A DNA stretch of 64,000 nucleotides from Narcine bancroftii (lineage: Eukaryota), in the NCBI RefSeq assembly GCF_036971445.1, contig NC_091482.1, positions 68,758,001 to 68,822,000 of the forward strand, in the 5' to 3' direction. Below are positions 1 to 61,089 of this stretch, one piece after another (the stretch's first letter is position 1; every line of letters starts with the position of its first letter). The notes beneath the pieces are model-generated. The model saw only the letters and a program-made list of their open reading frames with translations, was not told the origin of the DNA and made no database searches. The position numbers and the translations under genes are program-made.

Positions 1-1869
1 ACCTATTTCAATCATTACCAATTCACCTAACAGAGAAATTCTTCAAGGAGCTAAAGAAAATAATAAGGAAATTCTTATGGAAAGGGGGGAAACCGAGGAT
101 AGCGCTAGATAAATTAACAGAATGGTACAAACAAGGGGGCTTACAGCTACCAAACTTTAAGAATTATTATAGAGCAGCACAATTAAGATACCTATCAGAT
201 TTTTATCAAACAAGGGAAAAACCAGATTTGACAGGTTAAAGCTAGATAAAATAGGGGAGAAGGTACTAGAACATATACTTTATAAGTGGGATGAAAAACT
301 GGTGCAACATAGTGTGATAGTACAGATTCTATCACCAATGTGTATATGTACCTATGTACAGATGGTCGTGTAGGATGACTGTGATTGGTTGAGAGTGTAG
401 CCACACCTACTGGTAGGTCTTAAAGGATTGCTCCTAGCCAGACCAGGTCATTCTGGACTGGTCGACCTACTTGTGATATGCTCCAGTCTTTTAGTTAATA
501 AAAGCCTTGGTTTGGATCAACAATTCTTTGGTTCTTTCGACGCGCATTACTCATAGAAGTTCACCAGTACTGCACCATCTGCTCCACATTTGGAAGAAGA
601 TTCACGTAAAAAGAAAAAAAACAAATTACCAACTACCAAAATTATTATTGACGCAAAATCAACTAATCCCTTTCACAATAGATATCCTTTCCTTTAGAGA
701 ATGGGAGAGAAAAGGGATCAAAAGAATAGAAAATTGTTTTTTGGGAAATAACTTATTATCTTTTGAACAAATTAAGTACAAATATGGTATAACTCACGGT
801 ACAATGTTTGCATACCACCAAACCTACTTAAAGGACAAATTGGGAAACAGACTGAGGTTACCAGAAGGAAGCAATTTTGAATATGTGATTACAGACACAA
901 TGATAATTAAAAGATTTATTACAAACATGTACATTAAGCTGCAAGATAAAGAAAATGATGAAATAAGCTATAAACCCAAACAAAAGTGGGAACAAGATCT
1001 AAACATAAAGATAAAAAATGAAAAATGGGAAAAGCTATGCTCCAGAACTATGAGAAATACAATAAACACAAAGTTACAAATGATATAATATAATTGGTTT
1101 CACAGGCTATACATCACACCCCAAAAGTTAAATAAATGGGACCCAACAGTATCAGACAGATGTTTTCGCTGTAAGAAGGAAACGGGAACAACAGTACATG
1201 CAATTTGGGCATGTGAGAAAGTGGAAAAGTTTTGGGAAGATCTAAACCAGGTATTAAATAAAATCACAAAAAGCAACATATCAAAAAATCCAGAGATCTT
1301 TCTTCTAAGTAATATAAGAAGTAAAGAACTAGGCCTCAAATTGGATGAAGCACAAAAAAGATTTATTATGATAGCCTTAGCTGTAGCAAGAAAATGTATA
1401 ATGTCAACCTGGAAATCAGAAGAGAGCCTGAGAGTACAGCAATGGTACATAGAAATGAATAAATGTAATCCATTGGAAAAAAAATAACATAATTTAAAAA
1501 ATAAAGTCACAGTATTCGAACAAATTTGGGAACCGTACATGGAACACAACAGAGAGGGCCTACCGCGGACCTCCACCCCCTAAAATGATAGAATGAGAAG
1601 AAGACGAAATGAACTGACCCAGTGTGTAAAAGCAAATGACACAATTTTCTTGTTTATTTTCATTGTGTGATGACATTGTTTAATGGGTTTATTGTATTGT
1701 ATATGTTGAACGTTTAGTGGGTAGGGAGGGGGGGTTGGGAAGGAGGAAGGGAAGGGAGGGGGCAAAAAAGAGGGAGAAAATGACACTGCGTATATTCAAG
1801 AGGGAAATGTTTGTGTGTATTTTGGTTAATATGGTTCATAGTGTGAAAAATAAAATTTTTTTAAAAAAA
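1..1869 (+). mobile_element. L1-clade LINE copy A, 3' part of ORF2 plus 3' UTR and A-rich tail, degenerate
   Basis: GGLQLPNFKNYY and CFRCKKE..TTVHAIWAC zinc-knuckle motifs, stop at 1581, G-rich 3' UTR, AATAAA/poly-A; near copy of 4860-6450. Confidence 0.92.
313..551 (+). mobile_element. Solo LTR inserted in L1 copy A
   Basis: TGTGATAG...CATTACT termini, 5-bp TSD CATAG (308-312, 552-556), AATAAA; removing it restores the L1 sequence. Confidence 0.88.
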
Positions 1870-4800
1870 TCCAAGATCCATCTTAGTAAAATTTTTGAGA
1901 TATACGACAAGAGAAAATATACTGGAGCGGGCAAGGAATAAAATTAGAGAAGATAATAAACCATTGGAATACAAGGGTCAAAAAATATTTTTTTACCCAG
2001 ACATAAGGTCTTAAAGAAGAGGAAGGAGTTTAATACAGCAAAATTGATCCTATGGAAAAAAGGTTATAAATTCATGTCAAGACATTCAGCTGTGTTCTCG
2101 GATCTGGAGGAAGCACAAGAATTCGCAAAGCGTTTGCAGGACAGAAGGAGAAATGAAAAGATGGAATAAGAATGAAGAATGGCGATAAAGTATATATAAA
2201 GATGTAAAAACAATGTATATGTAAAGAACTAAAGAGGGAAAAGGGAAAGAAGTAAGGGGAAAAAAGGGAGAGCTTTGTTATATGTGTAAAAAAGTGTTTT
2301 CTAGGGGTGGGGGTGGGGGAAAGAGTAACCGTTACTGCGAAATCAGTTGACGCTTGCGAACAAGAGTGCAATCCAAATGGAAAGGGGTGTTGTGGTTGCC
2401 TGGCAAGGGATAAGGGGCAGCTCAGAGAGGGCAGGGGGAACATTTGGGGTTAAGGTAATATTGGGTGTGGGAGTTGTTGGAGTATTTTATGTTTTAAATG
2501 TGTTGTCATACATGACAATGAGGTGTAAACAAGATATAAGATGGCCACGTTGGACTATATGACTATGAATGGAATAAATAACCAAATTAAAAAGAAGAGG
2601 CTATTAAATTTACTGAAAAAAGAAAAAATAGACATAGCACTTGTGCAGGAAATGCAACTAATTGAAGTGGAACGTAACAAGTTAAAGAGAGACTGGGTAG
2701 GACACATGGCGGCAGCATCATGTAATTCAAAAGCTAGAGGTTATTAATATTAATTAATAAAAATGTACCAATCAAAATAGAGGAGGAAATAATAGATCCG
2801 CAGGGAGGTATGCAATGATAAAGTGTCAGGTACACTCAGAATTTTGGAATTTGCTCAATATATATGCACCTAATGAGGAAGACCAAAAGTTTATGCAGGA
2901 TATTCTTTTGAAGATTGTAGATACACAAGAAAATATATTGATAGGAGGGGATTTTAACCTTAATTTGGATCCAATGTTGGATAAAACTGTACAAAAGACA
3001 AGCAAAAAGAATAAAATAGATGCAGGAAATGAAACTTATGGATATATGGAGGAGGCAGCACCCAAGAGAGAAGAAATATTCATATTATTCGAGTAGGCAT
3101 AAAACATACTCAAGGATTGATATGTTTTTGTTGTCAGCCCATATTCAAGGGAGAGTTAGGAAAACTGAGTATAAAGCTAGATTGCTATCTGATCATTCAC
3201 CTCTTTTATTAGCAATAGAACTGGAGGACATCCCACCAAGAACATATAGATGGAGGTTAAACTCCATGCTACTTAAAAGCCAGGAATTTAGAAAGTTTAT
3301 TGAATGCCAAAAAAACATATTTTGAAATAAACATGAAATCAGTGAAAGACAAATTTATATTATGGGATGCAACGAAAGCCTTCATTAGAGGGTAGATAAT
3401 AAGTTATGTCACTAAGATGAAAAAGGACTACAATCGGGAAATAGAGCAGTTGGAAAGGGAGATAGTAAGTACAGAAAAGGAACTAGTAAAAAGGGATGAT
3501 AAAACAAAAAAGAGGGAATTGGCAGACAAATAAAAATAAACATTACCAACGTACAAGGTGGAGAAGAACATAATGAAAATAAACCAAAAGTATTACGAAC
3601 TGGGAGAAAAAAAAACACATAAAATATTAGCCTGGCAACTTAAAACAGGACAAGCAGGAATTTAATGAAAACTTTAAGGAACTTTATGAACAATTATACC
3701 AAACTGAGAACAAGGGGAAAGATGATAAAATAGAAGAGTTTTTAGCTAAAATTGAACTGCCAAAATTGCAAGAGAAACAAACCAAACTGATAAAACCATT
3801 TGAAAAAGAGGAAGTACAGGATATATTAAAAAAGTTGCCGAACAATAAAACGCCAGGAGAGGATGGATTCCCAATAGAATTCTACAAAACATTTAAAGAG
3901 TTATTAACTCCTCCTCTCCTGGAAGTAATGAACCAGATAGAAGAAATACGAAACTTGCCAGATTCATGTAAGACAGCAGTAATTACAGTAATACCAAAAA
4001 TGGGGAAGGATCCATTAACACCAGCATCATATAGACCAATATCTCTACTTAACTCAGATAATAAGATAATAGCGAAATTATTAGCATACAGATTAGCCGA
4101 TTGTGTACCAAAAATAGTGAAACAAGATCAAACTGGATTTATTAAGAAAAGATGAACAGCGGATAATATCTGTAAACTTATTAATCTAATTCATGCAGTT
4201 CAAGGAAATAAGAAACCAACAGTGGCTGTTGCTTTAGATGCAGAAAAAGCCTTTGACAGAGTAGAGTGGAATTACTTATTTAAAATATTACAAAAGTTCA
4301 ATCTACCAGAAAAATATATAAATTGGATTAAAGCATTGTATAATGGACCGTTGGCAAAGGCAGCAGTAAATGGATATGTATCGAACCAATTTAAATTAAG
4401 TAGGTCAACTAGACAGGGATGTCCATTATCCCCCTCATTGTTTGCCTTAGCAATAGAACATTGGCAGAACAGAAAATAAAATAAAAGGGATAAAAATAAA
4501 GGAGGAGAATAAAATCAGCTTATTTGCAGATGACATCATAGTATACCTAACAGAACCAGAAATATCAATAAAAGAATTGAAGGAGTATGGAGAAATATTG
4601 AGGAACAAGATCAACAGAAATATAAGTGAAGTGATGCTAATGAGTAACATGGATTATACAGAATTTAAAAAAGAATCACCATTTAAATGGCAAACACAAG
4701 CAATCCGATACCTAGGTATCAGTTTAGATAATAACTTAAGCCACTTGTACAAACTAAATTATTAGCCACTAATAAAGAAATTGCAGGAAGACTTAGAACA

Positions 4801-6450
4801 TTGGAAAGAATTACCGCTAACGTTGATAGGTGGGATAAATTGCATTAAAATGAATGTTTTCTCAAGGATACAATACTTATTTCAATCGTTGTCGATTCCC
4901 TTAACAGAGAAATTCTTTAATGAACTAAAGGGAATAATAAGGAAATTCTTGTGGAAAGGGGGGAAACCAAGGGTAGCATTAGATAAATTAACAGAGAGGT
5001 ATACACAAGGTGGTTTGCAGTTACCAAACTTTAAAAATTATTATAGAGCTGCACAATTAAGCTATTTATCAGATTTTTACTAGACAAGGGAAAAACCAGA
5101 CTGGACTAAGATAGAATTAGATAAAATAGGGGAGAAGGTACCAGAACATATACTTTATAAGTGGGATTAAAAACTGGTGCAATATAAAAGCTCACCAGTA
5201 TTGCATCATTTACTTAATATATGGAAGAAGATCCACTTAGAAAGGAAAAAAATGAATTACCAAATACCAAAATTGTTATTGACACAAAACCCACTAATCC
5301 CTTTTACAATAGATAACCTTTCCTTTAGAGAATGGGAGAGAAAAGGAATCAAAAGAATAGAAAATTGTTTTTTGGGAAATAATTTATTAACATTTAAACA
5401 GTTGAAGTACAAATATGGAATAACTCATGGTACAATGTTTGCATATCATCAGCTGAAAGCTTATTTAAAGGATAAATTTGGAAATGGACTGAGATTACCA
5501 GAAGGAAGCAGCTTTGAATATGTGATTACAGACACAATGATAATTAAAAGATTTATAACGAACATGTACATTAAGCTGCAAGATAAGGAAAATGATGAAA
5601 TATGCTCTAAACCTAAACAAAAGTGGGAAAGGATCTAAACATAAAGATAAAAAATGAAGCATTGGAAAAGTTATGTTCTGGAACTGTGAAGAATACAATA
5701 AACACAAGGTTACGCAGGTTATATATCACACCTCAAAAGTTAAAAGAATGGGATCCAACATTATCAGATGGATTTTTCACTGTAAGAAGGAAATGGGTAC
5801 AACAGTACATGCAATTTGGGCATGTACGAAAATGAAAATGTTTTGGGAAGATCTAAATTAGATATTAAATAAAATCACAAAAAACATACCAAAAAATCCA
5901 GAGATCTAAGTAACATAAGAAGCAAGGAATTAGGCCTCAAATTGGATAAAGCGCAAAAAAGATTTATTATGAGAGCCTCAGCAGTAGCAAAAAATATGTA
6001 CAATGTCAACTTGGAAAATGGAAGAGAGCCTGAGAATACAGCAATGCTACATGGAAATGAATAAATGTATTCCATTGGAAAAAAAAATAACATATAATTT
6101 AAAAAATAAAGTCACGTTGTTTGAAAAAAATTTGCAAACCATACATGGAACGTAACAGAGAGGGCTTGCCTCAGACCTCCACCCCCTAAAATGATAAGAA
6201 GACAAAATGACTTGATTTGGTGTGTAAAAGTAGATGACACATTTTTTTTGCTTATTTTTCATTGTTTCATGGTTTCATTGTATTGTATATGTTGAATATT
6301 TGTTGGTTTTGGAGGGGGGTGGGAAGGGGGGAGGGAGAAAAAAGGGAGAAAATGCCACTGTGTATATTTAATGAGAAACGTTTGTATATATTTTGGTTGA
6401 TATTGTTCACAATGTGAAAAATAAAAAAATTATAAATAAATAAAAAACAA
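1870..6450 (+). mobile_element. L1-clade LINE copy B: ORF1 C-terminus, frameshifted ORF2 (APE endonuclease, RT, Cys-rich domain), 3' UTR and tail
   Basis: NIYAPN, GGDFN, SRID, SDHSP (endonuclease); YRPISLLN, LDAEKAFDRV, RQGCPLSP, LFADD (RT); many stops and frameshifts. Confidence 0.95.
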
Positions 6451-7917: not shown

Positions 7918-8930
7918 ACTCTCTTGCCCACACCCCCGCCTTAGAGAGAGGAGAGGAGAGATTTTTTCTGCTATCCCTTCATAAATGACTTAACCCTTTG
8001 TTTTGCTAATCTGTATGTGCATTCTAAGACCACATTAAGCGCCAGGGCTTCCAACATTTTCAAAACAGCACTGAGCCATGCAAATGTTCTACTTGAAACT
8101 CTTCAAAGATAAAACAAGGACCACAATGCCACACCGACTGCTCTACTCAGTTACAACTCCTTATGGAAAAGCATCAGAGGCAGATTTCCAATCACCTGTT
8201 ATTCTTCATTTTGTTGAACATCTTGCATCACGAGTCTCCCAGACTCATGTGAAACATACTTCGATTGAAAAAGTTTGTTCATCTACCAAAATATATCGTA
8301 GAAAATACATGTTTAAAACTGGCACGCCATGCCATTAGTTCACCAATCCGATCCATGTAACACACAATCTCAAGCAACTGGAAAATTCACTTATCCAGCA
8401 TCTGCCAATCCCTGTAGGTGGCGGATATCAGTGATTTTACTTTGAAGGCATTCTTTCTCTGGGTGATCTCATCACCATCAATCCCTGACATGATTTAAAT
8501 CCAAACAAGGAGATGAAATTAGCTCTTCTGTCTGTTATGTATCTTCAGTGAAATAAGCTTGGAACCATTGCAGTCCTGTTCAGAAGCAGCATGTGGCTAC
8601 AGTGCACAGCGTTGTTAATTACAACTGCTGTAACAAGGTAAAATTACTTAATTATTAAGATGGCTCCTGCAGGAAAAAAAATTAACACGGGCAAGAACGA
8701 TCACTGTTCTTATCGCAAGGCTCATATAGAATAAAAAAAAGCTTCCTCTGGTTGTACGATGTCTGACATGTTAGTGTTGAACCCGTGCAATGAGAATGCT
8801 TCACTCCTTATTTGAATCACGCATCTCTTTCTTCACGACACAACAGGAAAAATAGAAATGTTTTTTGTATGGACTCTCAAACCCACTGGTGAGAAACAAG
8901 AAACAGCTGTCAGACTTAATGTTTACATAC

Positions 8931-9047
8931 TTGTTCAGATGTCGGTTCTAATAGCCGTGAGAGTGTTGACAGTATGTTCACTAAAAGCTGTGCTTCCTTG
9001 CTGTTAAACTCCTCTTCATCCCCACTCAGCTGCGTCACAAGGGATCT
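8931..9047 (-). CDS. FANCI: FANCI exon 27 ([23 protein letters not shown]...LLEPTSEQ)
   Basis: AG/GT boundaries, 117 nt, homology. Confidence 0.94.
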
Positions 9048-12000
9048 CTGACAGCAAATGGAACAGAACAAAAATCTTTTTATTTTCCATTTACTGTTCA
9101 CGTTAAAGGATAATCACGTATTCACGATTAGAACCATGAATATGATGTATTTACTATAATTGCAGTGGGACGCAATCATTCTGTAGGAAGATAAGTGGCC
9201 TTAAATTAAAAGCAGTACCACTTACCTGGAGGGAAGCAATAAATGCTGCAGACGCTGTGATTGTAGTGTAATACACAAAAGTGCTAGGGCAACTCAACAA
9301 GTCCCGCAGTGTCCACATGAGGTAAAGATATATAACCAATGTTTCGGGCCTGAGCCCTTCGTCAAGGCATGAGGAAAAAGCTCATAAAAAAGGTGGGGAG
9401 GAGGGAAGAAGGGGCAGGGAGAGAAGCACAAGCCAACAGCCCATAGGTGGACATGGATAGGAAGGCAGGTTAGACAACTGATAGCCCTCTACCCTGATCA
9501 ATTCTGAGCTTTTACTTTCCGCCCTCTAATCCATGTTCATCTACGACTTCTTGGCCTGTGCTCCTATCCTTTTCTTCCCTCCTCCTCTCCTCCATCTTTT
9601 TAATTCAGACACCCTCCTGCTTTTTGCCCATTCCTTGACGAAGGGGTCATTGATTATATATATCTTTGCCTCCTGTAGATGCTGTGGGACCTGCTGAGCT
9701 TCTCCAGGAGTTTTGTGTATTAACCACTTACCTGGAACTGTCTAATATGGAAGGCTACTTTCTCCGTAATGTTGACATTCTCCTGCTCTTCTTCTCCATC
9801 ACTCATCAAATCTAAATATAAAATTCATAGAATATTTTAGTCGCCATTTTCTCTTTTCCAAAAAGATTTTTTTTTAAATTTATCAGCATGTTAACAGGCC
9901 TTTTCAGTCCATGAGCCCATGCAGCCCAATTGACCTAACACCTCCAGTAAGTTTTGAACAGTGGGAGGAAACCGGAGCCCTCAGGGAAAACCCACGCAGA
10001 CATGGGGAGACAATACAAACTCCTTACAGACAGCGGAGGGATTCGAACCCAGGCCCTGATCGCTGGCGTTGTAACAACGCTGTGCCAACTGTGCCGATTA
10101 GGGTGCCACAAGCATCATTGGTACCAACAAACCATTAGGAACATCAAGTACTTCCAGATTACTTGCAATTCTGCTAAGATGCATGCCTCCCTTTATAATG
10201 CTCTTTTAAATATTTGCATATCAGTTCATAGGAAGCAAGTGTAGAACTCTTCCATCATACGACACAGGTTGAATACAAGTAAATTACAAATTTCTGTAAG
10301 CACCATGGTCGAAGTAAAACACACAATGCTGGAGAAGCTCAGCAGGTCAATCAATGTCCTTTATGAAGCAACGGCAAAGATATAGAACCGACGTTTCGGG
10401 CTTGAGCCCTTCAACAAAGTATGAGAAATCGTTCCTGAGTTTAATTGAGCTTCCTTTTAATAATCAAGAGTGAAATGTCTGCGTTTTTGTCTGTGTTTGA
10501 GAACGAAAATTAATATTGGGTCCCAAAAGAGAGTCCCCCTAGAATCACTGAGTGCCTGTCAATTTGCCTCCAGCGCTCCTGCAGCCCTTCCATCCACACA
10601 GAATCCATTCCAAACCTTCCGCAACCTGAGCTCCAGATCCAAACCTCCAACACTTTGCGACCTGGGTCCAATACCTGGGACCTCTTCAGCCAGTCTCCAG
10701 CAGTCTGCCACCTGGTGTGGATCTCTTAACCATAGTCATCAGTAGCCCACAGCCAGCATGGGTTCCTCACCTCGAGTCACCAACAGCCCGTGTCTGTGTG
10801 TTCTTCAGTCACAGAGCACAGAGCCCCTCGCTGATCCGCCACCGTGCTCACCGTCCCATGGGTCGTCTCCTCTGCCTCTCCTTCTCAGACAGTGGGGCGG
10901 GGGGGTTCTCTCTCTTTTCTGGTGCCCTGCACCAGTCCTCTGCTTCCCTGGAGTCTATAACCTCTGGTGGCTGCTGCCAATCCTAGGCACCGCCATCTTG
11001 GGTGCAGAATCCGAAGCCGCAGGATTTTCAATAAAACTATCAGCTTCTTTAACAGGCCGTTTAAAGCTTGCTCACAGCTGATGGCAGTCGAACTGGGCAG
11101 CGGGACCCCGTGGTAAAGCATCGTGCTTCCTATCCCTGCTCTCCGTGGGTCCACACCAGCGGCAGTGCTGTGGTTAATTTATATCAGGCACCACACACTT
11201 GAATATGAATAAGCCAATCATTTACATCTCGGGGTCTACAACATTTGAAAAAATTTCCCACACCTGACTGCATTTAGAAGACTAATGATATTCTTGCCTG
11301 GCTCATCCAGTCTGGTTCTCACATTTGGATAGAAACTCATTACAGCCACACACAATCAAGGTGTGTCTCAAGTAATAAAAATCAAGGGTTTACCTACTAA
11401 CCTAATGTTCTGAAGAACTGTTGAATCTTGCTTTGAAATCTCTGTTGCACTGAGTTAAATATACGCAGTAATCCTTCCAAACATAGTCGTGAAATAGTTC
11501 TTCCTTTCTCTTTCTTCCCAGATTCTTCCACTGCTGACGGAATTGATGTGTATCTCCATAGGAGAACCCTACCAATGCAACAAATAGGTGCTGGTAACGA
11601 CATAGATCACATTATTTCTCAACAAGAGAACCTTATTGTTTGCTGACAGAGCACAAATTTACAGATTCTGGTATTTCAAATGAGTGAATATCAGACAATT
11701 AAAATACCTAAAAATTATCAGTAAAATTAGAAAGCACGGAAAACAAATTGTAACAGGGTCAAGAACAAATCCATTAACATTTCGTACACAATTCTTCAAA
11801 ACAACCCAAAACAATGAACCATCTTTCCCTTTCATATGAGGACCAAGTTGCCATGTATTTACAAAATTCTCTCATTTTGGTTTTGGTTTCTGATAAATGC
11901 TGCCTTTTCTTTCACTGCTTGTAAAAATCAAGGGTATTAGATAAACGTTTAGAAAAAGATAAATTATTTGATTACAGTAAAATCCCCGTTATCCGGAAGT

Positions 12001-30000: not shown

Positions 30001-33000
30001 CAGGTCATTGGCGCTTATATATGTCGCACTAACCACGGTGAATAAACCATGTTACTGAATTCATAGCACACTAAAAATAGACCATATTTTCAGAGCACAT
30101 TGAGTACAGATGCCCTAAGTTAGTTATATGGATGATACTACTCTATGTCTATGAAAAGAGCAAAAGCCCATCTCTCATTGCTGTCAATTGACTTACAGTA
30201 AACTTCTCCTGCTTTATTTACATGGATGAAGTTAAAAATTGATGAGATTTCAACAAACAATTGAATCCTGAAACTCCATTTCAGCGACTGCACTGTTGAA
30301 CTTTGCTTAACCTGAAATGATTCTGTAATGTCAATAACCTTAAAACTTTTCAAGTATACCTCATGATGATCTCTTAAAAAAGTAGACTGTTATGACAAGA
30401 CCAAATAAAGAAAACAGGCAGTTTGACAAAATTGCATTTTAATTTTCTTAAAATGTTTAGCAACCTTTCCTATTTAATGATGAGTCGTAGTACAGAGGGG
30501 ATAGAGAGAGCAGTGAGGTCAGCAACTCTCCCTGGTTAGACTTCTGGAAGAGGGGCGGAGCTCACTCCCCAATGGTAAGGAGGTGGAGATAATAGACAGC
30601 TCTAAGCTTCTCTGTGTAAACATCTCCAATGACTTGTCCTGTCACACATCTTTATGTCTCCACATTTACACGATGGGAAGCATTCTATCAGGGCGCATCA
30701 CTGCGTGGTATATGACTGCTCTGCCCAAAACCGCAAAGGCTTGCGAAGACAGCTCAGGCCATGACACAAACCATCCAACTACTTTGCAGACTCCATCTAC
30801 AACTCCCACCTCCTTGGGAAAACAGTCAACATATTAAGACCATCCTGGCCACACTCACTTCACACTCTCCTATCAGGAAGAGCGCACACCACCAGATTCA
30901 AGGAGAGCGTATTTCTTGCCATTAACAAACTCCTGAAACAACTTCAAAATATTATACTGTCTTTGCTCCATACAAAGTGATCTTTCTCTGCAATTCTGTA
31001 CTTTTCTACGATGCGAATAGGTGTCTAACTGGTCTGCCCACAAAACAACCAATTACTCCATCTTAGTATATGCAAAAGGAAAACTCTGTAAAGGCAGACT
31101 GGCATCTTGCCTGAAAAATCTTGTAAATCAAAATTCCCAGAGTACCTCATTGGATTATCAATTCAAATTCCTAGTTATAGCATTCAAAATAATGACAAGA
31201 CATCAAGCAAATGAAGATTGCATCAAAATTGTAAAGTGATATCAATGTTTTATACAGTGAAACAGGAAATTTTATAGCCATTATGGAATAGGGATCAAAT
31301 ATAGATTATTCTATTGTAGAAGTTAAGAGATCGAGGACAATGTTTTACCTGCACGGCCTTTAATAGTCCCTGGACTGTGCTGAGAGGCAAGTAGGACAAG
31401 TGGTCAAATGCCTCGATAACCTTGGAGGAAGAATCCAGGAGAATGAGAGGTGCAGAGGTAACAATATCAGATAGCAAGTCTGAGAAATAGAAAGAAAATA
31501 TTTTTCTTTCTACATACATTTAACTTCATTGTAAGCTGTAAAGAGTGTGGTGGGAGAGCAAACTACACAGAAACAGGCACAATCAAGAACTCTGATTAGT
31601 CACCTCCTGAATAGAAATAAAAGGAATCTCAAAATGACAGATTTTGCAATTATATATTAAATATGTTTAGGCTGCAGCACCCAGATACAAATCCAAATTT
31701 ACACCGTATTCCTGGAAGCTGCAATCTTGACTGGAATACAAGAGAGTGAAACATGAAAGTGTGCAGACCCTGTGATTGTAGTAAAAACACAGAAATGCTG
31801 CAGGTTCAGCCAGTTTCACAGCGTCCATAGGAATTAGAGATATTTTACTGACGTTTGGGGCCTGAGCGCTTCTTCAAGGTAATAAATCTTTATCTCCTAA
31901 GGACACTTTGAGACCAGCTGAGTTCCTCCAGCATTTCTGCGTGTTTTGGAATACAAGGGCAACTACAATCTTTCTGTAAAAATCCCATTTGCACAGGAAG
32001 AAATTAAATTCTCAGTTCCCAACTTCCACCTCGGAAGTGAAAATTTAATTGGATGAATAAACCAACCTTCCCAAAAAATTCAATTTGCTTTACACCCACC
32101 AAGCTTCACGTTCAGAGTTTTGTCCATGCATCTACTTGCCTATGTACTGAGTGATGGGTGAAGTCGTCTTTGTTACCACTCTGTTCAGAACTTGCTCCAA
32201 GATTTCACTTCTAATTGGCTCATGCACCTGTATAAATGGTAGGAGTAGGGAAGTGGGCAGGAAGGAAACGAATGATACATTGATTTTAAAAGCGACTATA
32301 ATTTTATTGCACATCAAGCAAACTGGATATTCAAAATAGAAAGTGGTAAATATTAAAAGGCAAGACAATTAAATTAAAACATGTTAGATAACACTGGTCA
32401 AAATAAAAGGCTCCTGTCTAATCCAGTTGTAGAGACGAATTTAAAGAGTCTATTTCATTATTTGAAGTATAATCAATCTTTCAGTGTCCTCTGGAATACC
32501 TTGACTTCAATAAACAGAAATACAAAAAAAAATTCCCCTCATTCTAAATTATTCTCTACAAAATGCATTTTACATGTCCCTACTCACTGGAATTCAAAAT
32601 AGGATAATTTAAGCACTGAACACGTTACACCGCATTCACCTTGAAAGTTTCCAGAAGAATCTTGGCTCCCAGTCTCGAGGCTTGTTGCGCTGGTGTCTTA
32701 GCTGCCATTGCATTGTTTTCCACAACTTTCCCAAAAGGACCCCCCTTTGGTCCAAAGGAATCCATGAATATAAATCCCAGCTGTACCAGTGATTGAGTAA
32801 CGTGATCCCACCCGAACATACTATTAAAAAAAACATGGAAAGTCTCAGACGGGAAGAAAATAATTTATACAACCAAACAATGGCAGGCGGTTAAACAATC
32901 AATCCTTTCTTTAAAAAAAAATCAACCCCCTTAAGAGTCTGATATTTGTAGTTCTATTACTATTTACTTTTAAAGCAAAACATCTCAACAGCAAGGCCCA

Positions 33001-39000: not shown

Positions 39001-42000
39001 CAAAATATCAAATATTAACAATGTGCCACTCCCAACCTTTGATAAACAGCATTTAAACACTGTGTTTAACATCCAAGAACATTATTGTAGGTTATCATAC
39101 TGGTTGGTTGAAGGTACAAGTGAGCTGTTAATGAGTCACATGGGTGGGAGAGAAAGGAAAGTGAGCAAATACATGGGAGGTGATAAAAATTATAAGGAGA
39201 ATTTTGAAGGAAGGACTCTCACACATTTCAGAATTTTTTATAGCCAAAGTAAAATTTCTGAATTGAACTTTAGAAGACAAATAAAAGAAAATGTCATATT
39301 AAAATAAAAGTACAAGCTGAAGAAGATTATAGCATTAAGAACCAAGATGCTAGAAAAATTAAGATCAATGGGAGTGCAGCCAGCAAGTTGGGATGCAGCT
39401 TCAGAGACCCAACAGTGTTCGAAAAATAACACAACTGAGGTTTCAGAGACCAATAATGATTAGATGCAGATATGGACGTTTCAGATATCGATGGCACCAT
39501 GCCTTCGGGACCTGGGTTTGAATCCCATGGTATCTGTAAGGTGTTTTTACATTCTCCCCATGTCTGCGTGGGCTTTCCCTGGAGGCTCAGGTTTCCTCCC
39601 ATTATTCAAGATGTACCAAGGATGTAGGTTAATTGGATGTAAATTAGGCGGCACGGACTCACGGGCCAAAATGATCTGTTACCGTGCTGTATGTAAAATT
39701 TAACTGCCCAGTGCCTAAAGCACATAGCGTTGATGTGAACATATGAACCTCCGATAGGACATACCACCTCTCATTCACAAAAAATGCAACTGCTGGTGCA
39801 ACAGAAACTTTATCAATGAATAACTTACACTTCAATTTTAATCTATTAGTTGGTTTGGAATGCTTCAAGGAAAGACACAAGTCTCCAAGGAAGGTCCCAA
39901 CCATCTCCAAAATTCTTTCAGACACCAGGATCACAGAGAGGTTGGTCAGAGGAGAATCAAAAACATCAGACAAATAGGCAGTTAGCAAACCCATCCACAC
40001 AGGACATGAGTAGCAGAGGGAAGAAATGAGCACAAAAGAAAACATTTAAATAACAAATGGCTCAAGTCCCTCTTCCATGATCCAAGTATAACCAGGAGTG
40101 GCTTTGCTCTATGGATGCTTCTCGGAGCAGAACTCTACATGTGATCTTCAGCTGGGTGTTGCATGCTATTTGATATCACTACTTAACTACACTTGCCTTA
40201 TCACAAAGGACCTGTCACATATTTCCAGAGGTATGCTGATGTAATCAGATTTTGATGAAATTCAATCAAGTGCTGTACTGCAGAATAGAATTTCTCAGCC
40301 AACTTACTGGACAACTTCAGTTTCTGCCAGGGCCTTAAAACGACAATTTTTTTTTTATTTTTTCTTTAAATTTTTTTATTTTTCACACCATAAATCACAT
40401 TAGCCATGATATACACTATTTCTTTTTCACACATATACAGTGACTTTTTCTCCCCCCGCCCTTTCCTCCCAAACCACCCCCCCACCCCCCCCCTCATCCA
40501 TTTTAGGTATACAATCTAGGTTGCATTAAGCCAGTCAGACAATGTTGTCATTCAACAAAATTACACCAGAAATTCTACTGAGTCCATTCTTTTCTTTCCT
40601 TCTCCTTCCATCAACTTAGGTAATGTTTGTCCCCGGTAGGTTTTCGCTATTGTATTTAATGTAAGGCTTGTTCGAATATTTCAATATTATTTCTTAACCA
40701 ATATGTTATTTTTTCTAATGGAATACATTTATTCATTTAAATTTGGTAGTTTCTTCCTTTTAATTTGGTTATGTATTCCATTAATATTTAAAGACATATA
40801 GTTCAGCGTAGCCCTTTTATATTTTGTTTATCTTCTCTTTCCGTTTTTCCATCATTACCTTTCCTCCTTTTCCATTTCTGTTTTCTTATTTTCAACTCTT
40901 TATAAGACAACATTCCTACAACATCCAACATTTTCCTTATTCTCCTATTTCTATCTTATTTATCCCCAATCTCCCCTTCACCTCCTGAGTTGTCCTTTAT
41001 CCCTTGTCGGACAACCACATCTCCCCTCTCCATTTGGATATGCGAATCCACTCGCAAGCGTCAACTGATTTTGCAGTGACCGCTATTTCCCCCCACCCCG
41101 CCTCCCCCAGAAAAGATTTCACTTTTCATATGTCACAAAGGTCACTCTTTTAATTCCCTCCTTATTCTCTCTATTCCATTACCTTCCCTTATTAATTCTT
41201 GTCTATACTATCTATATTTTCCTCTAAGTACAGATACATTCATGTATGCTCATTCTCTCTATTCACTCTTATACCGCTTTACCCGCATACATATCAATCG
41301 TGATCATTTTTACTCTCATTACCCGTCTTCATCCCTCAGTCTATTTTTGTCTTTACCCACATACATATCAATCGTGATCATTTTAACTCTCATTACCCGT
41401 CTTCCTCCCTCAGTCTATTTTTGTAATTGTTCTGCAAATTTTCGTGCTTCTTCTGGATCCGAGAATAGTCTGTTTTGTTGTCCTGGAATAAATATTTTCA
41501 ATACCGCTGGATGCTTTAGTATAAATTTATACCCTTTCTTCCATAAAATCGCCTTTGCTGTATTGAACTCTTTTCTCTTCTTTAGGAGTTCAAAACTTAT
41601 ATCTAGATAAATGAAGATTTTTTGCCCTTTATACTCCAGTGGTTTGTTGCCCTCTCTTACTTTTTCCATTGTCTTCTCCAGTACCTTTTCTCTTGTAGTA
41701 TATCTTAGGAATTTTACTACAATAGATCTTGGTTTTTGTTGTGGTTGTGGTTTAGAGGCCAATACTCTATGTGCCCTTTCTATTTCCAATTCTTGCTGTA
41801 GTTCTGGACATCCTAGGGTCTTAGGGATCCACTCTTTTATAAACTCCCTCATATTCTTGCCTTCTTCATCTTCCTTAAGGCCCACTATCTTTATGTTATT
41901 TCTTCTGTTATGGTTTTCCATTGTATCTATTTTTTGAGCTAGTAGTTCTTGTGTCTCTTTAGTTTTTTTATTAGATTTCTCCAATTTCTTTTTTAAGTCT

Positions 42001-45000
42001 TCTACCTCCATTTCTGCTGCTACTGCCCACTCTTCCATCTTGTCCATTTTCTTTCCCATTTCTGTTAAGGTCATCTCCATTTTATTTATTTTCTCTTCTG
42101 TGTTGTTTATTCTTTTTCTTAAATCCTTAAATTCCTGTGTTTGCCATTCTTTAAATGACTCCATGTATCCTTTAATAAGAGCAAGTATATCCTTTACCTT
42201 GCCTATCTTTTCTTCTTCTATTTCACCATACTCTTCCTCTTCTTCTTCCTCTGGGTTGACCATCTGTTGTTTCTTTGTTGCCCTTTCCTCCTCTTCTTTC
42301 TATTGTCTTCTGTGGTCTTTTCTTGCAGCAGGTGTTCTGCAGCTGTCGTTGCCGGCTGTGGAGATCGACTCCCCAGCTGGTCCCCCCTCCCGTCGGTGTG
42401 TTTTTTTTCATTCGCATCGCGCATGCGCGAAGTTTCGCGCATGCGCGGTTGCGCACTTTTACTCGGCTCTGCGAGCCATTTTTGTAGTCCATTATTTACC
42501 GACCTGAGGGAGCGGGTTTCTCTCTCCGCAGCGGGCCTCTTCGGACAGGTAAGGCCTTCACCTTTTTCCTCCTTTGTCTTCTCTTCCTCTCTTCTTACCA
42601 TTGCTTTCGACTTTTCTTTTTTTGTCGCCATCTTCTTTCCACCTTTATACTCACTTTTCTGTAACTTTTATTTCTGTGCCTTTGTGTTTTCTCTTGTTTT
42701 TCCCGACTTTTCTGGAGAGGGCTGGAGTTCACCGTCCGGCCACTACTCCATCACGTGACTCCTCGACTATTTTTTTAATGCACTGATCTCCTCTCCCGCT
42801 TGACATCTTATCCCAATTCCAGCATTACTTCACTTGCTTCATCCCCCTTTTTTTTTTAAACGAGCTCTTTGGTGCCTTGTATCGCTGCCCTTCAAGGTAT
42901 CTTAGTTACAGTAAAACAAAAACAGTTAACAGAAACAGTCCTCTATTATACCTTCAGATATTTGAGGAGTTCACGACCAAGGTCATGGTCTAATTTGATA
43001 GCAAATACAACATGAAGAATGATGGTCCCTTCTATGTGACGGAGCTGGTCTTTTGGCACAGTGACAGCCTCTAACTCCACGGAACTATAAAAACAAAAAT
43101 CAAAGCACAATTCAGCACATGAAAGGAAATAAGAAGCAATTCAGGGAGCAGGAAAACCAACGCTTCTGCAACATTCCTGAGATATTACCAGAAACAGAGA
43201 GGGGACATGTTGAATGTACTGAAAAAATAAGAAGCATCTACGCTTTATCACCATTGAATAATTCACTGGGTTAAAGAGCATTATGCTGAGATTCGTACAA
43301 CCTTCACTGTTTGGATTAACACAGGAAAAACACAGGCGGCTGAGTTAGCGCAACGGTGTTGCAGCACCAGCGAACGGGACCAGGGTTCAAATCCCGAGCA
43401 GTCTGTCTGGAGTTTGTACATTCTCCCTATGTCTGCATGGGTTTCCTCCCACCACTCAAAATGTACCAGGGGTTGTAAGTCAATTGAATAAGGGCTCGTG
43501 GGCCGAAAGGGTCAATTATTGTGCTGCGTGTCTAAATGTAAAATTTAAATCATGGACATTCAAGTGAAAAATAGTTCAAACTCACTCAGTTGCCATCTGT
43601 TCTTCTTTTTGTAATTGATCTTGCTGATGGAAAAATGTTATGATCCCTTCTAAAAGAGTTTTCTTACAACCCTGTTGAACAAGAAGAACAATTACCAAAT
43701 ATCATTAAGTTTATTGTCAACCTGCCGAAACAGCGTTCTCCGGTCCTCGGTGCAGAACACAAGAACACAAAATGAGACAATACACACACAAAGAAATACA
43801 ACTGATATACAGGACAAGTATTCATATATGCAAATAAATAAATATTGTGTTGCTAATATGAGTCTTGGATGGTTAGTTCGAGTAGTTCCTTTGGTTTTTC
43901 AGCATTCTCACTGCCTGTGGGAAGAAGCTGCTCCTCAGCCTGGTGGTACTGGCTCTGATCCTCCTGTATTCCTTTCCCAACAAGAGCAGCTGAAAATGTT
44001 GTGTGTGGGGTGGAAGGGTCCTCAATGATTTTGTGCACCCTCTTCAGACAAGGACCCCGGTAGATCACATCAATGGTCCAGGGGGTACGAAGACTCCAGT
44101 GATTCTCTCTGTCACTCTTATGGTCCTGTGAATTGATCTCCAATCCATTTCTCTTCAGCAACCGTACCACACTGTGATGCACTCAATAGAGCTCCTGTTG
44201 AAGGTTGACATTATGGTGGCCGGTAGCCTTGCCCACTTCAGTCTTCTCAGAATTTAGTCGCCGTTGCACCTCCCTGACCAGTGAGGGGATGTTGAGTGTC
44301 CATGATAGGTCACTAGTTAAGTGATCTCCAAGAAACTTGGTGTTATCCACTTTCTCCAATACAGAGTTGATGTGTAGTGGAAGGTGGTTGTCCTCCTGAA
44401 GTCCACGATCATTTCATTTGTCCTGTCCACACTGTGACTCAGGTGGTTATTCTCGCACCATCTCCAACTGCAATACCACGATTATTACGTATTCTTTCTC
44501 AGCAAAATATGACAAGCCTGTAATTATTAATTAATCTCAACAATCATTATGAAGGACCAATATCCTCCATCAAATTATCAACTGCCAAAAACCAACAACA
44601 CCTTTTCTACTATCCTACCTTAGCAGAGAGGAGTAGTAACTGGTATACCAGCGGAGGAAGCTCCTGCAAGTCTACCTTGGGGAACATCTTCAGCACTTTT
44701 ATCACAACGAACTGAAGCTCTTCTGTACTGACTTGGACATCCCTTTAGAAATGAGAGTGAACAAGAACAAGCACTTACTCACAGTGTAATGAAATTCATT
44801 CAATGAAGAAGTTATTTCCCCCAAAAAATAATAGTGATTAAACTGATCGAACCATATATAGTTTACCTAAACATGGATGTGAGGTGAATCACACACTTTG
44901 GATCCCATCTGAAAAATATTCAAAATACATCATATATTAAAAAAAAAATCAAGAATGTAGCCACTTCATTAATTTATCAAAAAATAATTCCAAAAACCAT

Positions 45001-48000
45001 CTAAACACAATTTATAGCTCTTGCATACCCAATAAAATAGAGGCTGGAGGAGGGAGTAGAATGATTGGGATCCATTTCCAGGCTTCAGGATGGGCATCCC
45101 TCAAAAAGACTTTGCAGTGGCACAGTTGAATGGAGCTAAATAATCCTGTGGCCAGTTCTACCGGCATTAGGCTGATAGTGGAAATGTCTACAGGATTATT
45201 TAGCTCCATTCAACTGCTCCACTGCAAAGTCTTTTTGAGGGATGCCCATCCTGAAGCTGACTTTCCTGTTTAACTATTTATCAGGGAACTCCTTTAATCA
45301 TTTTCCTACAGTAACTCACTTTCCAGCTTGTGTATGCACATGCTGGAGAAAACGGTGAGAGCTCTACAGACATTTTGAAAGCTATTATCAACCATTCAAA
45401 ATGCAGATAGACCTGGTCCTGGAACAGTTTAATCCTGAAATTGGTGACATTTTTGCAAGAGTATTGCACATGATGTTAGGTTCAACAAAATACAGAAGCT
45501 TAAGGTTTCAGATAAGAAATGTTCTAGTTCATGAGATTTTGCTCCTCTGTAAAACCCGTTCAAGCAACCAGCAGAAATAATTACAAAAAAAAATTTAAGT
45601 AAAAAGTAAGAAGTTTAAAAGTGGCGTTCCTCGCCAATCACGCAGCATGCAATCTTAAACAACCAGATAATTCACTTATCCGACGTCGGCCAACCCCCCA
45701 GAGGTGTTCGATACTTGGGGTTTTACTTTATTTAATTCCGACACAGTTCCATGTAACAATACGGTACTTTGGTATAGTCAGACAAGCTTCTACTTGCCTA
45801 CTGGAGCATAAAGTGTTCAACAATTGCTTCTTGTATTCTTCGCCACATAACTGACCTGGCAAAACATAAGCAGAATAAAACTATGTAATGTTATACATGG
45901 CAAACAGCTAAAATAATTTAAAACATAGATTTCTCAAATGACAAGAACATTTTAAGCAAGATTATGGAACGAAACACAATACATGCCTCATTTCTTGCAG
46001 TAAACTAATTTTTCCTACCTCCGCCATAATTTAGGTTTTCTTGAGAAGCCAGAACGGTCAGTATCGGAGGGAATAGATCGAGTGATTTGCCATTAATAAT
46101 ACTGCCTTCTTTTATGGCATCAACATAAAGACTTGCTAGTTCAGCTAGTGTGGATCCAGGCAGCTGGTGAGCCTAAAATCAAGACTTCAAATGATGAGAA
46201 CAATATTCATGATGCAACAACTTACGATTCCACTATTACGTGGTTAGCGAAACACTAATTATAGCACCAGCGACCAGGGTTAGAATCTGGCATTGTCTCC
46301 AAGTAGTTTGTACTTTCTCCCCGTGTCTGCATGGGTTTCTTCCAGGTCCTCTAGTTTTCTCCCACTCTTCCCAACGTACTGGGGTTGTAGGTCAATTGGA
46401 TGCAATTGGGCTAGAAGGACCTGTTACCATGCTATCCGTCTAAATTAAAAGTATACACTCTATCATCTTTTTAATTCCCAGCTTAACCATGGTACACCAG
46501 TCCCAGGCACAGAGGAAGTGATGTACATTATTTCTTGTGGTTCTGGAACAATAGATCGGATTCTGAATCCCTTAACAGTTGGGAATTAAATGAATCTTGG
46601 TTTAAAAGAAAGTTAGTACAGGTTTATAATCTCTTATCCAAAACCCTTGGGACCAGACTCTTTTCAGATAAAAGTACGTTAAGTCATTGTGCTGACTTCA
46701 GATTTGCACAAAGACTCATTCCAACTAGAAGGGACTGTGGACAAGGGTGGGAGTTGCAGTGGCACTGGATTGGGGGGTGGGGGTGGCAAATGAAGTGAGA
46801 TAGATAGATCATAAAATTAGTAGCGCACTTTTTAATTTTAAGTAAAACATACAGTAAAACTTCAAACAAAAACTAGCTCAAAAAATTTATCTTTCTGCTA
46901 CTTTATGCAGTTCCCGCACCATAATCTTCAGTAAGAAGCCACAATCAAGCTTCTGCAGTAACTCTATTTTCTGCGCTATTGACAACAACAGACGCTTCCT
47001 TTTCTGCTTCCCACAGAGGACTCTGCTGCTCTTTTTGATATTTTCACCGCCTTCAAAGTCTGTGAGAAGCAGAGGCAAGTCTGACTGGTAAGAGCACTGA
47101 GACATGGCGCTGGACGGGGATAGCTCATGTTGGGTCATGTTTGGAGTGCAGATGGCAGAGTGCAGAGGGGTTTCACTATTTAGAATTTTGGATAAAAGAT
47201 TATGTACCTGTATCACCAATAGTGAAGCACATTTCCATTTAGTTAACTAATATCTTTCATTGAAAGCGTGGACCTGTAAATATTCTACAAAACTGTCAAG
47301 GGATAATAAATCCATCAACAACTACATTGGTGCTGCTTCCTGTATTATGAAGAGCTTGTCAACATAATATATTTTGCTGCAACTTTTCATCCCAACCTCA
47401 AATTCACTTGGTTCGTTTCTGGCATGCTCTCCCCATTCTAGATCTCTCTGCCTCCATCCCAGGAGATAAACTCTCTACAGATATTTTCTACAAACCAACT
47501 CCCACAGTCACCACTCCACACCCTGTCCCCTGAAAAGAATCTACACCTTTCTCTCAATTCCTCTACCTCTATTACACCTGCTCCTAGGATGTCCACCTTC
47601 TTTAAAAAACGTGGCTTCCCCTCTACTGCCATCAACTCAGCCCTTAACTGCATCTCCTCTATTTTCTGCACATCTGCCCTGGCCTCCTCCACCCCTAAAC
47701 ACAAGGCTAGGATTCCCCTTGTCCCCACCAGGCTCCACACCCACCATAATTGTCACGATAACGTGATCCCACTACCAGACACATTTTCCCCTCCCTTCTC
47801 CATCTTTCATAGGGACCGCTCCCTCTATGATTCTCTCATTCACTCACCACAGACATTTTCCATTAAACCCCTCCTGAGTCTCTCTCTTTCCCTCTGACTC
47901 CTTTTCTGCAGCTCCCACCCCTTCCCTTCTCTCTCCATTCAGAGCTATCCACTCACTATTCACTTCTCAGCTTTTTTTCTGTTCCACTCATTTCCATTTA

Positions 48001-51000
48001 CGTGTTGGCCCGTACTCCTCCCCCTGTCCCTTCCTTCCTTCTCTCCCCACCTTTTTATTCAGGCGTCTGTCTGCTTTTTGCTCATACCTTGACAAAGCCC
48101 GAAACATTGGTTACCCTTTACTTCCCATAGATGCTGAGTTTTTCCAATGACCTTTTGCTCATTGCACAATAATAAATGCCGGCCTTTCTAGCAGAAGTCA
48201 CATTCCATGAATGAATACAAAGAAAGTCAACAGCTCTCACTTGATAAATACTCGAGTTTTAGATTTGCAGCTTTAATAAAAAGGACACCATTATTTCATT
48301 GTGAACAATGGCTGTCAACCAAATCATCTTCCTCAAGTAAAGCTTACATAAAAAGTGGATGAATAAAACTGTACAAAATTATTTTACATTCAAAGCCTAA
48401 GCAGTTGCACATTAAACTAAATCTTGTCACTTCACAGGCATTTATTTTCCAATTCAGAGCGCAGCCAACAATCACTCGCCCAATTATCACTGATCACCTT
48501 ACAAAACCTTGATTCACCTAAACTTCTGCTGCCCATGACCTCTCTATTGACCAATCAACTATTTTGATCTCCATTGTGGCTCCAATTTTAAAAAGTTGTG
48601 TTCTTTTCCAAATTTCTTTATGACCTATTTCCTCGCTTGTGAGCTTCCATGTTCCTTCACAAAATGAACATATAACTGGTTTTGTGGTTGATTTACTTAA
48701 TTAGAAGCAAATATTTTTAAAAAAACCTTAAAACTACATTTTTAGGAGATACTAAAAGGACTTTCTATCTACAAGACTGCAGATATCTCAAACCTACCAA
48801 TATTCTTCCCGCATTGGTTCTTTCACTGGAAGCATGTCTAATTAACTCATGGATCAATTTATCATCCCAGGTTCAACAGACTTCCAAATGAATTAATCCC
48901 AAACCACAATACATTGCTTACCAAAATACCATCCATCTTCTGTTCTTAGCTTACTTTCTCCTTCCTTTGGAAATCTCTCCCCAGTGATGAAAATTACTTT
49001 CCAAATCTACCATATCAGAACCTGTTTTCTTCAAGTTAGGAGGCAAATTAAGTCCCTTCATTAGAGCCTTTTGTTCGACCACAAATTATTCACAGTGAAA
49101 AACAAATGAGCTTTTTGTGTGGGATATGAAGGAACGAATTTTTACAGTCTAATCAAATCAGTAAAAAGTTAAATACCTATGGAAGCAGAATTTCGACAAG
49201 GGTTATATAATTTCACTAGGGCACAAAATACTATCTCTTCCTCAGCATATGGGCCACTTTTCCATTGTTTTGACTGCATTGTATATTTAGAGTCTGTCTA
49301 ATAAATGCTGGACACATTTCTTACCTCAAGCATCAGTAAACCAATCAAATCTGTTGCTATATCTGATTGAAGATCTCCTGATTCAACCAGCTGCATGCAG
49401 TGCTTGTAAACAAAAAGCCTCCGACAAACTCCTTCATTTTTAGAGCACGGGGACCCTAAAAAAGCAGAAGGTACAAAGACGTATTATGAAAAAAATCAGT
49501 GAATTAATTACAAGTCAAGGACCATGTGCTCAGAATTGAATGAGATCAAATTTATTTTCCTTTTATTACATGGTATCATAGAATGACTAGAGCACGTGTC
49601 TATGCCAGTTCTCTGCAATAACGAGTGTATGGTTCCATTTACTAGCCCAAAATTATTCTCCAACATATATTTATCTAAAAGCCACAATTCAACACGCCTG
49701 CAGATAAATTCCAAGTATTTTTGATGGGCATAGATTAGGTGAATGGAAGCTGTCTATTTTTTCCCCCTGGAAGAGGAAGCTAAAGCTAGAGGGAATACAT
49801 TTAAGGTCAAAGGGAAAGATTTAAAAGGGATCTTTGAGGGGCAACTTTTTCATTTAATTTTTTTAAAATTTAGACATACAGCACGGTAACAGGTCACTTC
49901 AGCCCTCGAGTCCATGCCGCCCAATTTACACCCCCAGTACGTTTTGAATGGCGAGAGGAAACCGGAGCCTCCAGAGAAAACCCACACAGACAAAGGGAGT
50001 ACATACAAAATCCGTATAGATAGCACGGAATATCAAAAAAAAACAAACCATGATTACTTGATTACTTCACATCAATTCGTTGCTCATGAAAAATAAAATG
50101 AACAGCTGATATTCTGGGACAAAACGGGGAAGCAATGCCTTTATAGCACCAGTGATCAGGACAGGGGTTCGAATCCCACGCTATCTGAAAGGAGTTTTTA
50201 CGTTCTCCCAGTGTCTGCAAGCGTTTACCCCGGGGGCTCAGGTTTCCTCCCACTGTTCAAAACGTACCAGAGTATAAGTTAATTGGTGTAAATTGAGTGA
50301 CACGGATTTGTGGGTCGAAAAGGCCTGTTACCGTGCTGCATGTCTAAAAACCTATAAAAAATGAAAAGCCCTGCTTCAGGATTTGGTCTAGATCCCTGCA
50401 TCTGCAATCTTTTGTGTCTCTGGAGTTTTCTTGAAGATGTGACTTGGAGCAAAAGGAAGTGGTATATTTATTTAGGCTCTAAGAGGGCATTTAATAAGAT
50501 CCCATACAGGAGGTTAATCAATGAGGTTAGGGTGCCCTGAGTCAGTGTAATATACTAAGAGTTGAGTTTGCAAGAACAGAAAGATCTCTGACAAGCTTAA
50601 GAAGAACCAACCTTTAAAAATAGCTCTGACAAGTATTCCAATTTCTTTCCCTTTCAACGCATGACTTGTTATTAGAGAGCAAACCTGAAAGAAATGAGTA
50701 ATTAAATTCAAAATAAAATTTTAGATTGAAGAGATATAAGGAATACATTTCAGAGGCTTAATCTTACAAGTCACATCATTCCTATAAACTATTTGGTCAA
50801 ATAAAACTGGTTTTGGAGAAAACAAGGCACAAAATGTATACCTTTGAAATGTGTATTTGAATGCAGCATACATGTAATTTTTATACATGCTGAAGACCCA
50901 ACTGCGCTGGGTGGGTCACGTCTCCAAAATGGAGGACCATCGCCTTCCCAAGATCGTGTTATATGGCGAGCTCTCCACTGGCCATCGTGTCAGAGGTGCA

Positions 51001-60446: not shown

Positions 60447-61089
60447 CACTTCTTCCCCCAACTCTGTCTCTCTCCCTTCCCTGTCGCCTCTTGCACAGAC
60501 AGGATCAATTCTCACCTCTTCCCTTACCATACCCAATGAACACCTTTTGTTGGACTTCACCCCTAACCAGCACCACCCGAATTCGGAGACTTTCTGAGAC
60601 ATTCTGCTTATTCCTCCAAGAAGGGCTCAGCCCTGAAACATCAGCAATATATCTTTAATGGACGCTGAAAAGATCCGTTGAGTTCCTCCATTATTTTGGT
60701 GTGTTTTTACTACAATCACAGCATCAGGTGTCTTCCATGTTTCACAAAGCCCAGTTTCTCTCGGTTCAAGAAGTTTTTGTTCCCCAACAACAATCAGATT
60801 GCTGAACCTCCCCCCACCACCTTCACCTTAACTATAAAAGACTTTCATATCATTGACTTTGCATCCAAAGTATTTTCAGAACCAATACAGATAATCTTGC
60901 AAACAGCCATTGAAAAATTCTCATTCAAGATTAAGAAGGACACTTTCTAATGTTTGGTTTTATTTCTGCGGTGATTTCTCGACTGGGCTGAGCTGGGGAA
61001 TTCCAGTGAAACAAGTTTCCAGAAGGAATCATTTGGATTCCCTTTTATTAACTGGAAATTGTCCACAAAATAATCGTCACAAAAATGAA

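Follow-up and report, generated by a model that had tools for sequence, protein, structure and literature searches.

A Penelope-like insertion that copied a splice donor in FANCI: probably a tolerated retroelement scar

Close behind one of the coding exons of FANCI, a Penelope-like retroelement has inserted 9 nt inside an existing intron and has left a second copy of the exon's splice donor at its far end, where the copy also reads as an acceptor. The insert is likely an ordinary retroelement scar and not a working two-step splicing device. In the reading that we hold to be quite probable, the distal AG|GT is a tolerated decoy, mostly skipped by the splicing machinery, and the present-day intron of 684 nt is removed in one step. 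This reading draws on an extra base within the site of a relative (organism D), on a survival of the repeat that is compatible with neutrality, on the chance rate of AGGTRAG motifs behind related elements, on 24 intronic AGs (the site among them) that score at least equally, and on the published requirements of recursive sites. Against it stand a respectable acceptor, a regenerated donor that is the strongest of the gene, a predicted hairpin bringing the ends of the insert close, and a site that is intact in organisms A and C.

A duplicated donor in FANCI

The window (the whole 64,000-nt stretch that was analysed) holds 26 coding exons of its host gene, FANCI, on the minus strand, and their translation agrees over 1009 codons with FANCI protein P0001, a reference protein labelled in its source as an electric ray protein, with 0 mismatches. 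The exon concerned (9732..9811, minus strand, 80 nt) is the 25th coding exon in the window, which we take to be exon 26 from human numbering; besides the translation, mRNA contigs cover 9732-9811 in 4/4 runs. The next coding exon (8931..9047, minus strand, 117 nt), here exon 27, matches Pfam FANCI_S3 and solved FANCI chains over 9047-8931, and the contig joints show its own acceptor joined in the mRNA. The exon boundary has not been changed by the insert, and the junction peptide agrees with other vertebrates.

Around the 492-nt insert lies a perfect 14-nt direct repeat, ACCACTTACCTGGA, found, as the initial annotation had it, at 9217-9230 and 9723-9736, 506 apart; it occurs nowhere else on either strand of the window. 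Read on the minus strand, the 14-mer is TCCAG|GTAAGTGGT. The proximal copy (9723..9736, minus strand) carries the donor in use, CAG|GTAAGT, as the repeat search, the contig joints, the donor score and the translation to P0001 agree, which bears out the earlier placing of the 14-mer across the exon 26 donor. This donor matches the U1 consensus at 9/9 positions and is the strongest among the 26 of the gene. The distal copy (9217..9230, minus strand) holds the latent AG|GT, with AG at 9227-9226 and GT at 9225-9224. Both sub-introns thus defined end canonically (GT 9731 with AG 9226, and GT 9225 with AG 9048), and the second would correspond to the body of the intron before the insertion (9048..9225, minus strand, 178 nt), whose internal donors are all weak. 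Elsewhere in the gene, two FANCI introns open with GC instead of GT (window positions 45797 and 32139, minus strand), both with the donor TAG|GCAAGTAG. In the window at large, positions 1-6000 and 40000-44000 have a strongly skewed base composition and long open frames of low complexity.

The direct repeat abuts both ends of the element, as in a target-site duplication, which is what the initial annotation had proposed for all 14 nt. Duplication of the donor is upheld; the full length is not, because the element family often continues with TCCA(G) past its end, and the duplication proper thus amounts to 9-14 nt. In a genome-wide pattern count, TCCAG lies beyond the family end in 48 of 3,091 cases (3.9 expected), and TCCA was found in 7/30 sampled ends, with varying later letters. 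The 4-5 letters that open the distal copy of the repeat, AG included, may therefore come from a ragged element tail or from a target preference. Homology priming is not claimed for this insert, since a lizard element was reported to prime in vitro without homology to the cut DNA (available part of PMC11167929). Clear flanking repeats were seen at 2/30 sampled ends (11 and 12 nt) and at 0/30 controls, most copies being too decayed to size. A set of other copies aligned at 9226-9262, which seemed to reach into the repeat, was biased by the minimum match length and was set aside in favour of pattern counts. A second Penelope-like end lies in a FANCI intron at 31732-31957, and its target-site duplication, already pointed out in the initial annotation, is the 11-nt repeat TGGAATACAAG at 31732-31742 and 31947-31957.

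The insert and its family

The insert is composed of two copies of one repeat, each of about 240 nt, in opposite orientation. It had been described earlier as one Penelope-like piece, of which the type of element stands and the single piece does not. The proximal half (9483..9722, plus strand) is an inverted, tail-less Penelope-like 3′ end, antisense to the gene, and the distal half (9231..9482, minus strand) is a Penelope-like 3′ end with its terminal tail; the inner boundary between them is approximate. Because the self-match spans insert positions 39-492 only, a tail of about 38 nt (9231..9268, minus strand) is present at the distal end alone, and its last ~15 nt form the pyrimidine tract of the acceptor-like site. 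Related copies stop at the same endpoint, so the tract derives from the element, as first suggested. The end of a GIY-YIG reading frame lies upstream on the same strand in 11/29 of the best related loci and downstream in 0/29, which indicates that the distal half runs in gene sense; the GIY-YIG query frame clears the Pfam cut-off.

By its sequence, then, the insert is the 3′ end of an endonuclease-bearing (EN+) Penelope-like element together with an inverted copy, and the Penelope-like origin first proposed holds on the one-end tail, the inverted copy and the GIY-YIG context. In the published description, Penelope-like insertions have a truncated copy next to them in inverted orientation, and one of their ends bears a tail of 30-40 bp (available part of PMC8557442); the FANCI insert has both. 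With other EN+ elements, as far as the accessible parts of PMC8557442, PMC11167929 and PMC4209133 describe them, it shares the 5′ truncation with an adjacent inverted copy, the one-end tail of 30-40 nt, a putative hammerhead-like motif and, in longer relatives, the upstream GIY-YIG frame; unlike them, it has lost all of its coding part, and the core of its ribozyme has decayed. The putative remnant of this ribozyme is a minimal hammerhead-like motif at 9335..9365 (minus strand), whose first core base is T instead of C, and an Rfam search of the insert gave no hammerhead match, only 8 weak hairpin-driven microRNA hits far below the cut-off. The insert region is predicted to fold into a long hairpin (z -12.5).

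An exact 21-letter end pattern of the family is found 3,091 times in the genome; this number is a minimum and does not count the diverged FANCI copy itself. Further fragments of the same repeat family occur in the window at 10314-10428, 47960-48113, 54432-54539 and 60591-60725, and the stretch 10373-10428 holds a less decayed hammerhead-like sequence. Reverse transcriptase and GIY-YIG frames are found at five other loci (L069-L072 and L074), whose Penelope-type family is another one and does not match the FANCI insert.

Age and conservation of the site

Two relatives, organisms C and D, both contain the distal end of the insert, and no empty orthologous site was found among them; on these alignments, the insert is older than the split from both. 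In organism C, one contig covers 8872-9262 without a gap and with 23/391 differences from organism A. None of the listed differences falls within 9217-9231: of the 23, the 16 with a listed position are all outside it, and the rest presumably lie near the contig ends. From organism D there is one contig of 124 nt (depth 7.2), which aligns over 9134-9225 and has five listed intron differences in common with organism C. Its loose end at 9225, compared by eye, matches 9226-9254 at 26/29 letters after one inserted base, so that the gene strand reads CCAG-T-GTAAG, with one base between AG and GT. Because of this extra base, two-step splicing in organism D would keep the base and shift the frame. The interrupted AG|GT, known from a single contig that may be one allele, would thus argue against a needed recursive step. 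In organism B (run X5), positions 9195-9226 are uncovered.

The intact repeat in organisms A and C is in turn what chance would give. The halves of the insert differ at 35/182 aligned letters, and if they began identical and each decayed by ~10%, an intact 14-mer would be expected with a probability of ~0.23; between organisms A and C, the 23/391 differences give 0.43. With such values the intact 14-mer needs no selection, and we found no conservation of AG|GT above the neutral expectation in organisms A and C, where it is intact as by chance, or in the single contig of organism D, where it is interrupted.

Nor does the family as a whole show spliceable inserts in excess. AGGTRAG lies within 10 nt after 7 of the 3,091 family ends, with 5.1-6.3 expected, i.e., at the chance rate, and none of the seven loci was tied to a recognisable exon. 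Two of these candidates, L031 and L033, show an upstream repeat at 13/16 letters; in both (L033 around 1500-1680, L031 around 1500-1900) the family end is followed by AG|GTGAG in a similar layout, and a protein search with L033 alone found no match. As a rough guess, with an assumed 200,000 donors and 30,000-100,000 copies, 5-18 donor-spanning insertions would be expected per genome.

Splicing of the insert-bearing intron

The RNA data come from four runs of one study, guessed to be RNA, in the form of assembled contigs only, which drop rare forms. A FANCI contig of 3.4-4.2 kb joins 9732 to 9047 in 4/4 runs (depths 219.9, 66.3, 52.1 and 30.6): normal FANCI mRNA is made. As both routes yield the same mRNA and rare forms are lost from contigs, this join does not decide the splicing route. 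Across the runs 15 joints are listed and 215 more exist, among which a weak 9225-9732 joint could be hidden. In the deepest run (X6), four records were found over 8860-9262, namely the mRNA and three unrelated repeat ends, with no intermediate and no micro-exon join; the same run has no cover over 9056-9223, and that gap was not counted as evidence. A read joining 9732 to 9225 would also be expected from an insertion-free allele, or from reverse-transcriptase switching across the 14-nt repeat that closes the hairpin (see the available part of PMC4176328). Low-depth contigs (2.8-5.6) from the insert core, 9343-9666, occur in 3/4 of the RNA-like runs, with none from neighbouring unique intron stretches; a stable remnant of the hairpin, pre-mRNA or the assembly process may account for them. 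At position 9557, a single contig of depth 2.8 shows an A-to-G change on the gene strand, which may be editing, an allele or an error.

The distal site itself is respectable. With home-made matrices built from this gene only (its own 25 acceptors and 26 donors), the distal AG scores 8.5 bits as an acceptor, rank 16 among the 25 real ones (median 10.0), and the real exon 27 acceptor scores 7.6 bits left out and 8.1 included. The donor regenerated at the site is the strongest of the gene, and a pyrimidine tract with YAG stands directly before it, as in a recursive splice site; the initial annotation had read it as a 3′ splice site followed at once by a consensus donor, and these scores agree. 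By summed score it is first among 133 intronic AGGT sites (39,894 nt of FANCI introns), of which 12 pass the weakest real acceptor and donor. As an acceptor alone it is less singular, with 24 intronic AGs in FANCI, itself included, scoring at least equally. Another intronic AG|GTAAGT, at window position 14306 (minus strand), would also rebuild a perfect donor and has a poor acceptor score of 0.5.

How such a site could be tolerated can be pictured as follows. An insertion at a staggered cut would have copied 9-14 nt of the target, donor included, and the 80-nt exon would go on being recognised with the perfect donor that it already has. As a donor, the distal copy would do poorly, since its use requires an exon of 586 nt; as an acceptor, it would be little used for want of a good donor between it and exon 27, where the best cryptic one (in 9224-9049) reaches 2.4 bits, close to the real donor that scores second lowest (2.5). 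Counted against the decoy is that the donor of exon 27, 295 nt away, could define a 295-nt exon from the distal acceptor. The site would compete with the exon 27 acceptor as an alternative lying further upstream. On the occasions when it is used, either a second cut at the perfect donor thus regenerated would repair the message, or nonsense decay would remove the product. This self-repair could have been a fail-safe, and a possible reason why an insertion so near the exon was tolerated; nothing in the analysis shows selection for it. Published work, in the parts available, fits a decoy: recursive splicing starts with the definition of a downstream RS-exon, the exon junction complex of deuterostomes represses the regenerated donor unless it is very strong (both PMC6224609, PMC8605326), and human introns <1 kb prefer conventional lariats (PMC10156609).

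The initial annotation had proposed that the insert can be removed recursively as its own 506-nt intron. The layout fits this proposal; its use does not emerge from contigs that give the exon 26-27 join only. Its most durable form is a minor but real route, in which a measurable share of the transcripts loses the 506-nt hairpin intron (9731-9226) and then re-splices to exon 27, as a self-repairing bypass. We consider it unlikely. It would profit from an acceptor that scores about as high as the real one and from the perfect donor that is regenerated, and the predicted hairpin would place the donor and the new acceptor side by side. Short human introns do give recursive lariats, as the less frequent mode (available part of PMC10156609), and strong regenerated donors are reported to escape repression (available part of PMC6224609). 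On the other side, the site is broken in the contig of organism D, and two weak tests are unfavourable: the lone yTnAy branch candidate within 70 nt of the distal AG is only 15 nt from it, and in the predicted fold, which leaves the tract and the AG outside the stem, much of the upstream branch zone (9280-9263) is paired. Equilibrium accessibility was given little weight, the real exon 27 acceptor looking atypical, and its tract paired, in the same fold too.

A broader version, which we hold to be unlikely, at about the level of the minor route, is that in this genome the Penelope tail serves as a ready-made acceptor with a bias for TCCA(G) at its junction, that an insertion at the end of an exon creates a self-repairing recursive site in one step, and that the FANCI intron is partly removed in two cuts, the first of them helped by the hairpin of the element. 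Very improbable is a dominant or obligatory recursion, with the insert as a newborn intron beside a zero-length exon: the canonical ends of both sub-introns and mRNA contigs identical to those of one-step splicing would suit it, but organism D would be frameshifted, conservation does not exceed the neutral level, in two sawtooth studies the introns that hold efficient recursive sites in vertebrates have medians of about 550 kb (as given in the available part of PMC10156609), and 684 nt falls in the fifth-shortest class of ordinary introns in FANCI, a gene whose other introns of 0.5-1 kb do without such a site. Equally hard to credit is an unproductive switch, in which the new acceptor with blocked re-splicing, the distal donor or a micro-exon of 20/29 nt would give stop transcripts that tune FANCI levels: all four alternative products do hit early stops (codons 974, 994, 981 and 984) and would be depleted from steady-state RNA, and a donor duplicated by an Alu disrupted MLH1 splicing in a patient (available part of PMC7767547), but with scores of -2.1 and -0.4 both micro-exon acceptors rank lower than any of the 25 real ones, the AG at 9247-9246 is lost in organism D, and there is no sign of regulation. 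Of the earlier predictions on these products, the early stop from using the distal copy only as a donor was confirmed in the translated product; for the frameshifting micro-exon from a CAG 20 nt upstream, the stop is borne out and the quality of the acceptor is not, nor was its join seen in the deepest run.

Known systems and significance

Seen as a tolerated decoy, the FANCI site has a close counterpart in a truncated AluSx-like insertion at MLH1 c.588+8_588+9, in intron 7, with a 14-nt duplication spanning the donor (PMC7767547, in the part available, also for what follows on this case). In both cases a retroelement lies 8-9 nt behind the start of an intron, and a 14-nt repeat duplicates the donor. 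With the Alu, splicing was disrupted and disease followed, whereas the FANCI insert leaves a normal mRNA and is old and common to relatives; here, moreover, the element end adds a pyrimidine tract, so that the donor copy also reads as an acceptor. With recursive sites and cryptic RS-exons (accessible parts of PMC6224609, PMC8605326 and PMC10156609) the site shares a pyrimidine tract-AG followed by GTAAGT that rebuilds a strong donor; unlike them, it lies in a short intron, with no good cryptic downstream donor, no conservation and no intermediate in the contigs. At most, it may be said to resemble a latent recursive site.

Introners and transposon-derived introns, as portrayed in the available parts of PMC11282704 and PMC12130899, have inverted repeats too, their ends and target duplication also spell GT...AG, and removal restores the target. 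They split exons and must be spliced out, whereas the FANCI insert sits in an existing intron, adds no intron position to the mRNA and belongs to a family in which such sites are not in excess. Searches of the open-access literature, with most hits judged by their listings, gave no paper that describes a transposon duplication creating a recursive site.

As a silent scar, the insert is an ordinary example of a retroelement insertion that copies a splice donor and is tolerated, particular in its element-supplied pyrimidine tract and in a relative with a broken site. If the two-step, hairpin-helped reading were true, the birth of a recursive splice site would have been traced here in a vertebrate. 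Should the site be used at all, it would represent a one-step origin of recursive splice sites in a vertebrate, for which organism D, with the site broken by one base, would be the natural control.
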